From a virus (taxonomy: Duplodnaviria; Heunggongvirae; Uroviricota; Caudoviricetes): a stretch of 43,003 bases of DNA. This document shows, in pieces, positions 6,523 through 9,236 of the stretch. The DNA lies in IMG/VR virus record IMGVR_UViG_641522624_000003; one strand, given 5' to 3'. The translations under genes and the position numbers were made by a program. The notes under the pieces are model-generated. The model was not told the origin of the DNA. It saw only the letters and a program-made list of their open reading frames with translations, and did not search any database. Every line of letters begins with the position of its first letter. The first letter of the stretch is position 1.

Positions 6523-6930
6523 TTACTGATGTTTGTTACGTTTGCGAGCTTCTAGTAGCTCGGTGAATAGGCGATTAAAATTCTCAACGCGGGCACGGAG
6601 TTCGCTGATTTGTGCTTGCTGCTCTGATTTTGGAAGTGCGCGATACAATCGCAACATCTCCAACTCATCTTCCGATAAGTCTAAGGCGCTGTTGAGTGCT
6701 ACTGGTGGATCTGGTGTTTTATCCTCGTCACCAAACAGTATCCAAGTTGGTGAACATTGCAATACCTCAGCCAGGCGATGCAAATTTTGCCCGCGCGGGG
6801 CTGTATGGTCGCTTTCCCATAGTGAAATTGATGAGCCAGATACGCCAGCGGCTTTGCTTAAATCGTTTTGACTTAAACCAACCTGTTTGCGTCTTTCTCT
6901 AATTCGTTGACCTAAAGTTTTCTCGTTCAT
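6523..6930 (-). CDS. dicA: DicA-like HTH (XRE-family) repressor
   Basis: 135-aa ORF with N-terminal HTH (LGQRIRERRKQVGLSQNDLSKAAGVSGSSISLWE) and C-terminal segment LQCSPTWILFGDEDK recalled from DicA; divergent from a DicC-like gene. Confidence 0.8.
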   Translation of the reverse strand: MNEKTLGQRIRERRKQVGLSQNDLSKAAGVSGSSISLWESDHTAPRGQNLHRLAEVLQCSPTWILFGDEDKTPDPPVALNSALDLSEDELEMLRLYRALPKSEQQAQISELRARVENFNRLFTELLEARKRNKHQ

Positions 6931-7007: not shown

Positions 7008-7235
7008 ATGTTTAAATCAGACGTAATTAATTTTTATGGGACGAAAGCCAAAGTAGCGAAAGCTGCTGGTGTTGATCCATCTGCTGTTTCTCAATGGGGG
7101 GAACTGGTTCCTGAAGGTCGCGCGATGCGCCTGCAAGAGGCATCCGGCGGGGAACTTCAGTACGACCCCAAAGTTTATGACGAATATCGTAAGGCAAAGC
7201 GGGCGGGGCGGTTGAACAATGAAAATCACCCCTGA
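7008..7235 (+). CDS. dicC: DicC-like Cro-type regulator
   Basis: Product contains LVPEGRAMRLQEASGGELQYDPKVYDEYRKAKRAGRLNNEN, recalled as DicC-like; start taken at the internal ATG of track ORF 6981..7235. Confidence 0.7.
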   Translation: MFKSDVINFYGTKAKVAKAAGVDPSAVSQWGELVPEGRAMRLQEASGGELQYDPKVYDEYRKAKRAGRLNNENHP

Positions 7236-7770
7236 ACAGGTTTGTGAGGCTCTGGATGCCTGGGTATGTCGACCAGGAATGACACAGGAGCAAGCGACGA
7301 TATTAATCACGGAAGCATTCTGGGCTCTGAAAGAACGCCCGAACATCGATGTTCAACGCGTCACGTTTAATGATGGCGAGGTTGATCAACGGGCGCTGGG
7401 CGTTAACCGGGTGAAGATATTCGAACGCTGGAAAGCTATCGACACCAGGGATAAGCGGAAAAAATTCACGGCGCTGATTCCGGCAATTATGGAGGCTATC
7501 CGAATTAGTGATTTCAGGTTGTATCGTGAGATCAGTGATGGAAAAAGCATTACGTACATGATCGCCGGATTAAACAAAGAATATGGCGATGTGGTGGAGT
7601 CCGGGCTGCTTTTTGCGGATCCAGCTGTTGTGGAACGTGAGACTGACGAGCTTATAGAAAAAGCTATTGCTTTCAAGCATGCGTATCGTCAGCAATATCA
7701 ATATTACTTTGCAGATAAACAAATGTCTGCCAGGGGTTTGTATGAGTATCGATGCACTACGATGGGCTAA
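7219..7770 (+). CDS. YdaT-like phage regulatory protein (putative)
   Basis: 183-aa ORF after the cro-like gene; segment KIFERW...ALIPAIMEAI resembles my recollection of YdaT-family proteins; a CII-type role is possible by position. Confidence 0.4.
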   Translation: MKITPEQVCEALDAWVCRPGMTQEQATILITEAFWALKERPNIDVQRVTFNDGEVDQRALGVNRVKIFERWKAIDTRDKRKKFTALIPAIMEAIRISDFRLYREISDGKSITYMIAGLNKEYGDVVESGLLFADPAVVERETDELIEKAIAFKHAYRQQYQYYFADKQMSARGLYEYRCTTMG

Positions 7771-8782
7771 AAAGGTGAAAACCGGCAGTTCATCCAGTAA
7801 GTCTGTATTGACCTGGCTTGCTGATATGTGCGGTGCCGATTTGTGTGCATACCCGTCTGTATCTGCACTGGCAGAAGTAACGGAACTAAACAAAAAGACT
7901 GTGCAGGACAGCTTACGACACCTGATGGAGATTGGGTTAATTGTTGATACCGGTGAGAGAAAAGGCAGAACAAAGCAAATTGTGGTGTACCGACTTATCG
8001 GTGTAGAAGAAAGTGTTGCCGAGCCTGAATACACCCAAAAACGGGAGTCTTTAAAGGTGGGTAAAATTGGTGCTGTTAATAAAAACAGTACCGAAAATGG
8101 TTATGTTTCAGCACAAAACAGACCCAAAAACGGAACTCTTAGCTGCATGGAAAATAACCAAAGACACCCAAATTTTCCATCAAAGACACCCAAAAACGGA
8201 TCACGGAACCCAAAGGAACCCAAAGATCTAAACCCCACACATAACGCACGCGAGAGTGCTCCGACCAGTGAGCAGGAAGTTTTGTCGTTACAGGCAGCAC
8301 CCCTTGTATTCCTGGATGGCCTGAGCGAACCCATCGGAAAATTTCCGATGACCGATAGCTGGTATCCGTCACGGGATTTTCGACGACGGGCTGCGTTGTG
8401 GGGGATGGCTTTGCCGGAGACAGAATTTACACCTGCTGAACTTGCCGCCTTCCGGGACTACTGGGCAGCGGAGGGGAAAGTGTTTACTCAGATTCAGTGG
8501 GAGCAGAAATTCGCCCGTCACGTAAATCACGTCAGGGCGCAGGTTAAACCAGTCAGCAAGGGGGTAAACCATGCAGCAGCACCAGGTGGCACCGCATCAC
8601 GGGCAGTTCAGGAAATTCGGGCAGCACGTGAGCAGTGGGAACGTGAAAACGGATTTATCAGCGACGGAAACGGTCTGGAAGCTGTGGGAACTCATGGGGG
8701 AGGTTTATTCGAACCGCTGGACCCAGAAGAACGGGGCCGCACCTTCGAAGCTCTGGATTGCACAGATTGGCGCGATGACTGA
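7742..8782 (+). CDS. Replication initiator (O-like): N-terminal HTH domain, C-terminal DnaT-like domain
   Basis: Start at MSIDALRWAKK within track ORF 7667..8782; HTH segment SVSALAEVTELNKKTVQDSLRHLMEIGLI; iteron-like repeats lie inside the gene; C-terminal region FTPAELAAFRDYWAAEGKVF resembles DnaT-like domains. Confidence 0.6.
   Translation: MSIDALRWAKKVKTGSSSSKSVLTWLADMCGADLCAYPSVSALAEVTELNKKTVQDSLRHLMEIGLIVDTGERKGRTKQIVVYRLIGVEESVAEPEYTQKRESLKVGKIGAVNKNSTENGYVSAQNRPKNGTLSCMENNQRHPNFPSKTPKNGSRNPKEPKDLNPTHNARESAPTSEQEVLSLQAAPLVFLDGLSEPIGKFPMTDSWYPSRDFRRRAALWGMALPETEFTPAELAAFRDYWAAEGKVFTQIQWEQKFARHVNHVRAQVKPVSKGVNHAAAPGGTASRAVQEIRAAREQWERENGFISDGNGLEAVGTHGGGLFEPLDPEERGRTFEALDCTDWRDD
8030..8226. 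repeat. Iteron-like repeats (ACCCAAA core, about 6 copies; tandem GAACCCAAAG x2), putative replication origin inside the initiator gene
   Basis: Direct repeats at about 8031-8044, 8120-8134, 8162-8172, 8183-8200, 8206-8215 and 8216-8225. Confidence 0.5.
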
Positions 8783-9236
8783 GCAGCAAATCCGACAGGT
8801 CTGCCGCCAGTGCATGGACCGCTGCCGGGCGGGTGAAACATGGCCTCCGGACCTGGCTGAGTTTGTGGCGCTGATTTCAGAAAGCGGGGCCAATCCATTT
8901 GGCCTGACGGTGGATGCTGTGATGGAGGAGTACCGCCGCTGGCGTGATGAGTCCTGGCGATATGACGGAAGCGACAAATATCCGTGGCCTCAGCCTGTGC
9001 TGTACCACATCTGCCTCGAAATGCGTACCAGAGGGATTGAGCGCCAGATGACGCAGGGTGAGTTAAAACGACTTGCGGAACGGCAACTGACGAAATGGGC
9101 AAAGCATGTTGGTAACGGGATGAGTGTTCCGCCAGTGCGACGACAACTGGAAGGGGCGAAACACCCGCAAGGGCCAACGCCAATTGAACGGCTGAAACAG
9201 GAATACGAACGCCGGAAGGCAGCTGGTTTTATTTGA
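8571..9236 (+). CDS. Replication protein P-like (helicase-loader family, lambda P C-terminal-like)
   Basis: 221-aa ORF with strong SD (AAGGGGG) 5 nt before ATG 8571; C-terminal region (PPDLAEFVAL...YPWPQPVLYHIC...MTQGELKRLAERQL) parallels recalled lambda P motifs; no Walker A motif. Confidence 0.5.
   Translation: MQQHQVAPHHGQFRKFGQHVSSGNVKTDLSATETVWKLWELMGEVYSNRWTQKNGAAPSKLWIAQIGAMTEQQIRQVCRQCMDRCRAGETWPPDLAEFVALISESGANPFGLTVDAVMEEYRRWRDESWRYDGSDKYPWPQPVLYHICLEMRTRGIERQMTQGELKRLAERQLTKWAKHVGNGMSVPPVRRQLEGAKHPQGPTPIERLKQEYERRKAAGFI

Follow-up and report, generated by a model that had tools for sequence, protein, structure and literature searches.

Organisation of the initiator and loader genes

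The window, i.e. the whole stretch of 43,003 nt of viral DNA that was analysed, represents a prophage of the E. coli type and carries an O-like replication initiator gene followed by a P-like helicase-loader gene. The two ORFs (7742-8782 and 8571-9236) share 212 nt, and the P frame corresponds to the O frame +1. An overlap of this length between the two ORFs in different frames had been described in an earlier note made from the sequence alone, and its coordinates were confirmed. The locus has the following landmarks:

7742..8782, + strand: O-like replication initiator gene, 346 aa, from ATG 7742 to a TGA stop; PGAP calls the same 1041-nt CDS
8558..8564, + strand: SD of the P-like gene, AAGGGGG, within the O coding sequence; duplex of -11.8 kcal/mol
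8565..8567, + strand: TAA in the P frame, which closes this frame one codon before the start (read from the sequence)
8571..9236, + strand: P-like helicase-loader gene, full length, 221 aa; PF06992, conserved ATG and SD
8571..8782, + strand: two-frame O/P overlap, 212 nt; equivalents of 149-224 nt in 26 loci
8780..8782, + strand: TGA stop of the O-like gene (read from the sequence)

The P-like protein is a true member of PF06992 (Phage_lambda_P): its residues 55-188 match positions 27-161 of the 162 profile positions with 59.3 bits (cut-off 26). The phrog_109 profile 'P-like helicase loader' aligns residues 19-221 to its positions 22-236, and no NCBIfam model matches the protein. The AF2 model of P (mean pLDDT 78.9) consists of nine helices preceded by a disordered segment (residues 1-25, pLDDT <50). 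In a Foldseek comparison of this model with the PDB, the three highest-ranking matches were all chains of lambda P in 9oa1 (E = 4e-6, TM 0.45, with 223 columns aligned); the model thus matches lambda P in the DnaB-P complex (9oa1_Z). It also reproduces the fold and domain order of lambda P, i.e. a disordered N-terminus, helical domains II and III and a C-terminal segment. The lambda P domains are described in PMC12661323, where domain I (residues 1-29) is considered likely to be intrinsically disordered. Judged by this homology, the P-like protein would bind and load the host DnaB.

The initiator is lambda-O-like in its role but not as a member of the lambda O family, since PF04492 (Phage_rep_O) gave no match to it at E <= 0.01, whereas lambda O itself scored 123 bits. 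Thus, of the two labels used in the earlier note, 'P-like' holds in full and 'O-like' holds for the role. In the AF2 model of the initiator, an N-domain with a winged HTH is followed by a linker without order, then by a domain of the DnaT type (residues 201-267) and finally by the C-terminal tail (277-346). The DnaT-type domain belongs to PF17948 (61.5 bits against the Pfam cut-off of 25). The full-length DnaT equivalog NF002770 reached 94 bits, below its cut-off of 201, and the score for HTH_36 (20.8 bits) was also under the cut-off. Within the tail, AF2 predicts an isolated helix at residues 287-302, SRAVQEIRAAREQWER, with the conserved pattern S-RAVQxIRAAR. Residues 306-346 are predicted to be disordered (pLDDT ~35), and the last ~40 residues are acidic.

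The overlap is conserved across enterobacterial genera

The same O/P arrangement was found in ~1,250 E. coli genomes. Moreover, 26 loci, which represent at least 12 enterobacterial genera and group into 10-16 clusters by sequence, all have P in the O+1 frame and an overlap of 149-224 nt, and none of them lacks the ATG, the SD or this frame relation (26/26). In 19 of these loci the O stop has the same position relative to P; in the rest it is displaced by between -36 and +36 nt. In about nine analysed loci the P frame opens 0-2 codons from the ATG, and the third frame contains 2-6 stops within the overlap in the loci analysed. Thus, both ORFs, their start and stop signals and the frame relation are conserved across divergent homologues. 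A scan of viral_contigs yielded 80 near-identical E. coli loci (L042-L121) and no diversity beyond them; these served for within-species polymorphism only. No description of this overlap was found in our literature searches.

The earlier note had left two readings open, a genuine long overlap or a frameshift that had extended or truncated one of the genes. The homologues keep the same overlap with both products at full length, which supports the former and argues against the latter. A recent lesion or artefact, as expected in a replication-defective prophage, would have to account for gene lengths and frames that recur throughout ~1,250 genomes of E. coli and across 12 or more genera. The 1041-nt O gene is intact and equally long in RefSeq genomes, P is equipped with a conserved SD and ATG of its own, PGAP flags no frameshift, and the sole indel found in the overlap among the 80 near-identical loci is an in-frame CAG triplet. 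A programmed frameshift giving an O-P fusion could be suspected from the fused O-P ORFs that public databases contain (P0103, P0119 and phrog_15931, a mixed family). However, these fusions come from loci in which the O gene is split into several pieces, and we rejected them as evidence for a programmed shift. In addition, a -1 shift from O would enter the third frame, which has three stops in the overlap, and the P frame is preceded by an SD and opened by an ATG that belong to it alone. We therefore regard a lesion, an artefact or a programmed fusion as highly improbable. According to the locus comparison, the overlap is genuine, out of frame and evolutionarily conserved, and both genes are predicted to be translated.

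Translation of the loader is predicted to start at ATG 8571

A strong SD and an ATG at 8571 had been attributed to the P-like ORF, and the measurements bear this out. AAGGGGG is located 6 nt 5' of the ATG, and its SD/anti-SD energy (-11.8 kcal/mol) is among the top 0.5% of 547 background ATGs taken from these genes. In 26/26 loci an ATG is found 120-150 nt 5' of the invariant Trp50, and the SD energy at the equivalents of 8571 has a mean of -9.55 compared with -2.97 ± 2.46 for the background (top 4% in 22/26). The O codon that contains the AT of this ATG is CAT, AAT, TAT or GAT and is always followed by a G-initial codon. It thus always ends in T, even though it specifies four different amino acids, while the background fraction of T-ending codons is 0.47 (p = 5e-6 with 16 clusters, 5e-4 with 10). 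This points to selection on the start ATG of P itself and not on the O residue encoded there.

Two further in-frame Met codons have been used as starts in public annotations:

8694..8696, + strand: Met42 codon, more likely internal, buried in helix alpha1; equivalent of the PGAP start in Salmonella, Citrobacter and Klebsiella
8775..8777, + strand: Met69 codon, ATGACTGA, probably a mis-called start; RefSeq/PGAP start of the 153-aa E. coli 'replication protein P'

If P started at Met42, the overlap would shrink to 89 nt and 8571-8693 would code for O alone. Several observations would agree with such a start: conservation of this residue is 90% or higher, Met42-equivalent starts account for the RefSeq proteins of 180-181 aa, an SD-like GGGAGG lies 5' of the codon in 7/26 loci, and P residues 1-30 are unconstrained. 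However, the invariant W39 and the conserved W36 are located upstream of Met42, the P-type codon-position pattern is already present over 8661-8693, and the confidently predicted helix alpha1 (P residues 25-46) spans Met42. The SD at Met42 is weak on average (mean -6.2), and its strong examples stand just ~3 nt from the codon; in L022 the codon is CTG. Two loci (L011 and L019) contain no start codon between the 8571-equivalent ATG and Met42. Orphan P genes that have no upstream initiator begin 10-26 residues before the WxLW motif, and extrapolation of the Pfam match (model position 27 = residue 55) places the beginning of the P domain near residue 29. Met42 as the start of P is thus very unlikely. 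Since the codon hardly varies and, in seven of the 26 loci, follows a strong SD-like sequence, it may serve as an additional internal start.

A start at ATG 8775, giving a protein of 153 aa, would leave an 8-nt overlap (ATGACTGA) and imply termination-reinitiation coupling like that of lambda O/P. It is the start that PGAP calls in E. coli, and the ATGnnTGA arrangement is present in most loci. Nevertheless, seven invariant P residues (W39, W50, K53, N54, G55, P58 and W62) and three predicted helices would lie upstream of it, and the Pfam match begins 14 residues earlier, so that 40 profile positions would be lost. The SD of the Met69 codon does not rise above the background (mean -3.9), and the codon itself reads CTG or TTG in L023, L026, L029 and L032, and TTG in L033, a degraded locus. 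Thus, although ATG 8775 adjoins TGA 8780, the locus does not behave as a short coupled overlap of the ATGA or ATGnnTGA type, because conserved P residues lie upstream, and a start at Met69 is hardly credible. The RefSeq annotation probably starts the E. coli P 68 codons too late. The RefSeq 'replication protein P' entries of this widespread prophage module are, most likely, N-terminally truncated: those from E. coli (153 aa, e.g. WP_000139457) would miss 68 residues and the 180-181-aa entries about 41. Since the missing part holds invariant residues and up to three helices, constructs or models made from these entries would be defective.

Constraint is partitioned between the two frames

Both frames had been considered protein-like across the overlap, which proved to be half true: each frame shows purifying selection in one half only. 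The two halves are:

about 8600..8647, + strand: O-constrained part, encoding the helix of O residues 287-302; read in the P frame, these bases give part of the disordered P N-terminus
8661..8782, + strand: P-constrained part, encoding P residues 31-71; read in the O frame, these bases give the last ~40 residues of O, which are acidic and disordered

Across 8601-8630 the identity was 0.51 in the O frame versus 0.23 in the P frame, and nucleotide diversity was highest at O codon position 3. Over about 8631-8660 neither frame is constrained. The P-constrained part encodes most of helix alpha1 and the next helices, including the seven invariant residues listed above. At P codon positions 1, 2 and 3 the diversity was.24/.155/.43 between 8661 and 8693, and.10-.14/.09-.12/.35-.44 between 8694 and 8779. 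These values resemble those of the P-only region, although position 3 varies a little more there (.49-.55) than in the overlap (.35-.44). When the O-only flank was compared without gaps, indels and mosaic upstream sequences made the counts equal at every codon position, and the outcome was set aside as invalid. No nucleotides of the overlap were found to be under purifying selection in the two frames at once, i.e. with suppressed synonymous change; instead, the constraint is partitioned.

P residues 1-30 show no amino-acid constraint in the compared loci. Their translation is predicted from the conserved ATG and SD and not from selection at the protein level. The P frame is open from Met1 to W36, and when synonymous codons were resampled with the O protein kept fixed, the per-locus probabilities of this openness were 0.33-1.0 (product 0.006), so that it is largely a by-product of the O amino-acid composition. 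A calculation from the average stop density, (1-0.041)^35 per lineage, had overstated the significance and was dropped. No O-frame selection was seen in the last ~35 O codons, where the acidic residues are dictated by conserved P codons, as can be read from the locus sequence. The Fisher combination of per-locus probabilities for the O frame being kept open at its end (p ~0.03) is a weak indication that it is selectively held open over these codons. The corresponding product, 2.7e-11, was discarded as a p-value, since the end-point is the observed first stop. In overprinted regions the unselected frame typically encodes disorder. An RNA structure coupling the two translations, i.e. a hairpin masking the ribosome-binding site of P until O translation opens it, was not supported (z = -0.9).

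The same tail follows unrelated initiators and always precedes one P subfamily

At least six unrelated initiator architectures carry the same ~70-aa tail, always before this P subfamily and in the same frame. In one of them, the L021 initiator, the tail follows a Phage_rep_O domain (PF04492). In the phage collection, the tail occurs in 15 records, and these are exactly the records whose P reaches 68% identity or more with the P studied here. With the 75-aa tail alone as a protein query, only short and partial fragments from E. coli were obtained, which gave no information on architectures. YdaU of E. coli K-12 is 94% identical to the L005 initiator over 151 N-terminal residues, and its C-domain is 46% identical to that of the L021 initiator; YdaU lacks the tail, and the next gene, which is DnaC-like, does not overlap it.

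Taking the selection patterns and the distribution of the tail together, we consider it probable that the overlap is genuine, that constraint is partitioned between its frames and that it forms one mosaic cassette with an O-P docking function. Under such a model the initiator would be read through to the TGA at 8782, and the loader would be initiated independently at ATG 8571 from the embedded SD. The stretch of about 8600-8647 would be held by the O frame, which gives a short helix, while the P frame gives a free disordered N-terminus comparable to domain I of lambda P. The segment of about 8631-8660, in which both frames are free, would act as a hinge, and 8661-8782 would be held by the P frame for the first helices of P domain II, with O giving a disordered acidic tail. 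The cassette would begin at the P ribosome-binding site, where initiator bodies join in one frame, and different bodies that enter it in the same frame thereby acquire the same ~70-aa tail. We infer that the tail and the P N-terminus are one mosaic cassette which carries the O-P docking interface: the tail helix would dock to the N-terminal region of this P subfamily, and both partners, being encoded in the same DNA, would stay together when phage replication modules recombine.

Alternatively, the overlap could be translated and yet functionally incidental, the passenger segments (P 1-30 and O ~305-346) being idle, the O helix having a role unrelated to P, and no adaptor cassette existing. Both passenger segments are predicted to be disordered and neither shows amino-acid constraint, which would be in line with such an explanation, as would the dependence of P-frame openness on O composition, an O-frame openness that is weakly above expectation, and the acidic O-tail residues dictated by P codons. 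However, the tail helix is under O-frame purifying selection, and at least six unrelated initiator bodies join in the one frame that reads this helix. Moreover, the tail is absent where the partner is DnaC-like, despite homologous initiator domains, and in every lineage the ATG and SD are placed 90-150 nt before the first constrained P residue. An incidental overlap is thus unlikely, and the partitioned docking cassette remains the preferred explanation.

A more far-reaching idea, which we advance only tentatively, is that the cassette works as a portable 'adaptor plus loader': an origin-binding protein recombining into it in the right frame would instantly gain a loader-recruiting peptide, and the overprinting would make the pair inseparable by recombination. 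If this is true, the overlap would be a genetic device for plug-and-play initiator exchange in mosaic phage genomes.

Implications and comparison with known systems

Long overlaps of bacterial and phage genes are usually annotation errors. The overlap described here, however, has been kept across genera, and the hand-over of constraint from one frame to the other within it is unusual. By analogy with lambda, it joins exactly the two protein ends that are expected to touch. The presence of the tail on at least six unrelated initiators offers a testable picture of how initiator and loader specificities could stay matched while lambdoid modules shuffle.

As in lambda and in phi80 (gp15/gp14), the initiator gene precedes the gene of a P-type DnaB loader within the early right operon, and in all three iteron-like repeats lie inside the initiator gene, in the region coding for the linker. 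P belongs to PF06992 in lambda as well as here, and the AF2 model matches the structure of lambda P; phi80 gp14 resembles P residues 93-221 only. The C-terminal region of lambda O is taken to bind P and the N-terminal portion of P to bind O (PMC6022878), and it is these two parts that overlap at our locus. On the other hand, the genes of lambda and phi80 overlap by 4 nt (ATGA) and not by 212 nt, lambda P is in the O-1 and not in the O+1 frame, and the initiator here lies outside the Phage_rep_O family, unlike lambda O. No similarity was found between the tail and the C-termini of the lambda and phi80 O proteins.

Another parallel is lambda O', which, in the account of Yates et al. (1977) given in PMC3640518, is a minor read-through product of unknown role in which 36 or 63 codons are added to O from the 5' portion of P, read in a frame other than that of P. 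In both cases the initiator would be extended by tens of codons into the P gene in a non-P frame. As far as this account goes, O' requires UGA read-through, whereas the extension here would be constitutive, since there is no stop until 8780, and contains a conserved helix.

The ydaU-ydaV region of the E. coli K-12 Rac prophage has the same immunity and replication layout (racR/dicA, ydaS, ydaT, initiator, loader), and its YdaU shares the DUF1376 N-domain with the L005 initiator (94%). However, the Rac loader is a DnaC-like ATPase, YdaU is without the tail, and a 6-nt gap separates the two genes. Overprinted genes of phages and other viruses likewise have long out-of-frame overlaps, in which the unselected frame typically encodes disorder, as it is predicted to do here. 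Unlike in those genes, the roles are swapped inside one overlap here, with O constrained first and P thereafter, and unlike where a new accessory gene is nested within an older gene, the parts that are joined are the ends of two proteins expected to interact with each other.

Gene content of the module

The window contains an immunity and replication module of the lambdoid Rac/PPompW type, made up of the following genes:

6523-6930, minus strand: dicA-like repressor
end at 7235: cro/dicC-like gene
7219-7770: YdaT-family gene
7742-8782: initiator gene (O), 1041 nt in all annotations
end at 9236: P-like helicase-loader gene (P)
DUF1627 gene, a member of the same module

The earlier note had called the two replication genes O-like and P-like. 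The latter label was borne out by the match of the ORF to Pfam PF06992 (replication protein P; 59.3 bits, cut-off 26). The former held for function only: the upstream ORF contains a DnaT DNA-binding domain (61.5 bits, cut-off 25) and a HTH_36 match below threshold, and the profile search did not detect the lambda O family domain in it. The upstream gene is an initiator by function and not a lambda O homologue. Sequence of 100% identity was present in one E. coli chromosome and one E. albertii contig, and similar sequence in 1,273 records, representing 1,269 of the 5,426 complete E. coli genomes.

PGAP also annotates same-strand overlaps of 29 nt between the YdaT-family gene and the initiator start (7742-7770) and of 17 nt between the cro/dicC-like gene and the ydaT start (7219-7235). 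Inside the initiator gene, a 24-nt direct repeat with the core ACCCAAAAACGG occurs in three copies at 8028, 8117 and 8183 (region 8028-8224), accompanied by shorter CAAAGACACCCAAA repeats, in the part encoding a disordered linker (residues 89-195). These repeats resemble origin iterons, and their location recalls lambda, whose ori is inside O.

Conservation of the O/P overlap

The P frame is shut by TAA 8565-8567 and opens at ATG 8571 (Met1), 6 nt downstream of AAGGGGG (8558-8564), whereas the initiator frame does not close until TGA 8780-8782. This gives an overlap of 212 nt, with the P frame at +1 relative to O; rechecking of the ORF, stop, Shine-Dalgarno (SD) sequence and ATG confirmed the coordinates and description in the earlier note. 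That note had left a choice between a genuine long overlap, a frameshift that extended or truncated one gene, and a programmed shift. We fetched 32 loci from one-genome-per-species contigs and analysed the 26 that had an upstream initiator (16 clusters at 80% and 10 at 70% nucleotide identity in the Met1-W36 stretch). Their genera include Escherichia, Citrobacter, Enterobacter, Klebsiella, Pluralibacter, Phytobacter, Kluyvera, Salmonella, Scandinavium, Pectobacterium, Buttiauxella, Erwinia, Samsonia and Limnobaculum. The relative frame was identical in 26/26, the overlap measured from the upstream ATG was 149-224 nt, and every initiator ended beyond the invariant Trp50 of P, 29-101 nt from the first base of its codon; these findings support a genuine overlap. 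Against an indel, the only change of overlap length among 80 near-identical viral-contig loci (L042-L121) was an in-frame CAG triplet.

A programmed -1 shift out of the O frame would lead into the third frame, where the overlap contains three stops. Databases do hold fused O-P ORFs joining the DnaT domain to P (proteins P0103 and P0119; mixed family phrog_15931), and the phrog_15931 profile matches the O tail and the P N-terminus at the same profile positions. However, the initiator gene is split into several ORFs at both inspected fusion loci (L040, L041), and we therefore treated the fused ORFs as errors or pseudogenes; the state of these loci suggests indel errors or decay.

The Leclercia adecarboxylata NCTC13032 locus was left out of the statistics. 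Its P frame is interrupted, with an open stretch that extends no further than -60 to +143 with respect to W50, and the frame relation to the upstream ORF is not the usual one; this copy has probably been frameshifted or pseudogenised. The Candidatus Symbiopectobacterium locus, with an initiator frame that stops within the conserved tail helix (…VRDIRAAR, then stop) and a truncated P ORF, appears to be a copy undergoing decay within the genome of a symbiont. Record PP818812.1 (matches H13, H65 and H81), named Actinobacillus phage vB_Apl-pPE4, contains the E. coli-type module (nucleotide identity 89%; tail 97% identical); Actinobacillus is an unexpected host for an enterobacterial prophage module.

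The start of P

Annotations agree on O and differ on the start of P, which is therefore a real question. PGAP starts P in E. coli at ATG 8775 (Met69; 153 aa; 8-nt ATGACTGA overlap) and in Salmonella, Citrobacter and Klebsiella at the equivalent of Met42 (8694; 180-181 aa); PPompW phage records use 8814 (140 aa), and a form of 221-223 aa is common among GenBank records and metagenome gene calls. Met69 and 8814 were rejected because W39, W50, K53, N54, G55, P58 and W62 are invariant in the P frame upstream of Met69. Moreover, several loci have CTG or TTG in place of the Met69 ATG, whose SD (mean -3.9 kcal/mol) is no stronger than background.

P probably does not start at Met42, or at any rate not only there. 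W39 is invariant and W36 conserved, whereas the O-frame residues at those bases vary (V/M/L, then G/A/D/E), and nucleotide diversity is already P-type at 8661-8693, upstream of Met42. In addition, the Met42 position is CTG in L022 and lies within a confident helix (residues 25-46) of the AF2 model. P homologues of Erwinia that have no upstream initiator begin 10-26 residues ahead of the WxLW motif. These orphan genes (L028, 2992-3618; L031, 2974-3543) may be remnants or domesticated copies; one adjoins a gene of ~297 aa that is ttcA-like by sequence motifs, and the other a large membrane-transporter-like ORF.

An ATG equivalent to 8571 was present in every locus, often 0-2 codons past an in-frame stop. 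Its SD duplex averaged -9.55 kcal/mol (background, -2.97 ± 2.46) and was within the top 4% in 22 of the 26 loci. The O codon supplying the "AT" is CAT, AAT, TAT or GAT, encoding four amino acids; it always ends in T, and the next codon always begins with G. Conservation is therefore of the ATG of P and not of the O residue, and in L011 and L019 no other start codon occurs between this ATG and Met42. P has an independent, conserved SD and ATG inside the O gene.

The length of full-length P is in keeping with the family. In lambda P, 37 residues precede the Pfam domain, and the extrapolated match places the domain start at about residue 29 of the window P; phrog_109 ("P-like helicase loader") aligns residues 19-221 with profile positions 22-236. 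The best PDB matches of the P model are the lambda P chains of the DnaB-P complex, and its disordered residues 1-25 correspond to lambda P domain I (residues 1-29), which is likely to be intrinsically disordered (PMC12661323). Taken together, we consider it highly probable that this is a genuine, conserved overlap starting at 8571. A systematic error in the RefSeq start site of P is probable.

Partition of constraint within the overlap

Nucleotide diversity at P codon positions 1 / 2 / 3 (P position 2 is O position 3)
8601-8630:.145 /.465 /.185, O-type
8631-8660:.42 /.51 /.45, constraint in neither frame
8661-8693:.24 /.155 /.43, P-type
8694-8779:.10-.14 /.09-.12 /.35-.44, P-type
P-only region (reference):.15-.21 /.10-.13 /.49-.55

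Amino-acid conservation and codon-position diversity reveal a hand-over between the frames rather than double constraint. At 8601-8630, which encodes the O motif S-RAVQxIRAAR, identity was 0.51 in the O frame and 0.23 in the P frame, and the same frame switch was seen in the segregating sites of 47 haplotypes, most of them from E. coli. In its AF2 model, the initiator consists of a winged-HTH domain, the linker, the DnaT domain, an isolated helix (residues 287-302, bases 8600-8647) and a disordered end (306-346). The diversity pattern and the AF2 models imply that in each half of the overlap one frame is ordered and constrained and the other disordered. The two-frame arrangement is conserved, with selection partitioned between the frames. 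Synonymous-codon resampling indicated that the open P frame from Met1 to W36 is mostly a by-product of O amino-acid composition; past W36 the open stretch of the O frame exceeds expectation only slightly (Fisher combination of per-locus values, p ~0.03). Acidic residues of the O tail are dictated by conserved P codons (e.g., TGG-ATT giving GAT).

The initiator tail and its partner

At least six upstream-gene architectures were found among the 26 loci: HTH_36 + DnaT, DUF1376 + DnaT, DnaT with another N-domain, a lambda-O-type Phage_rep_O with a YdaU-type C-domain, DUF1376 without DnaT and HTH_36/DnaD_N, with several initiators having no Pfam match; E. coli contains more N-terminal combinations. 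Common to all are only the last ~70-75 residues (the tail), and this similarity starts at the bases forming the P ribosome-binding site. The tail travels with P and not with the initiator body, as a mosaic cassette that starts at that site. In the phage collection, the 15 tail-bearing records were exactly the 15 with P at least 68% identical, and no tail was detectable beside more distant P genes (phi80, HK639, phiV10 and others).

We tentatively propose that the tail may be a P-docking adaptor. Both products would be made as predicted, and the tail helix would dock on the N-terminal region of P, by analogy with lambda, in which O is taken to bind P through its C-terminal region, and P to bind O through its N-terminal portion (PMC6022878). 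With both partners encoded on the same DNA, a matched pair could stay together when initiators are exchanged. A search for RNA structure coupling translation of the two genes found none.

Comparison with known systems

YdaU of the K-12 Rac prophage is 94% identical to the L005 initiator over 151 N-terminal residues, and its C-domain is 46% identical to that of the L021 initiator; however, it lacks the tail, and a gap of 6 nt separates its gene from the next one, which encodes the DnaC-like YdaV. The resemblance of phi80 gp14 to the window P is confined to P residues 93-221. Because the YdaU, phage-collection and lambda/phi80 controls agree, we regard the O tail, together with the ~90 N-terminal residues of P, as a subfamily-specific unit. 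A distant precedent for an initiator entering the P gene in another frame is the lambda O' read-through product, which ends 36 or 63 codons into P according to Yates et al. (1977), as cited in PMC3640518. We found no description of an overlap of this kind in the searchable literature. Lambda and phi80 have the classical 4-nt O/P overlap, compared with 212 nt in the window, which has an initiator/loader module of lambda type whose overlap is unusually long, conserved and partitioned.
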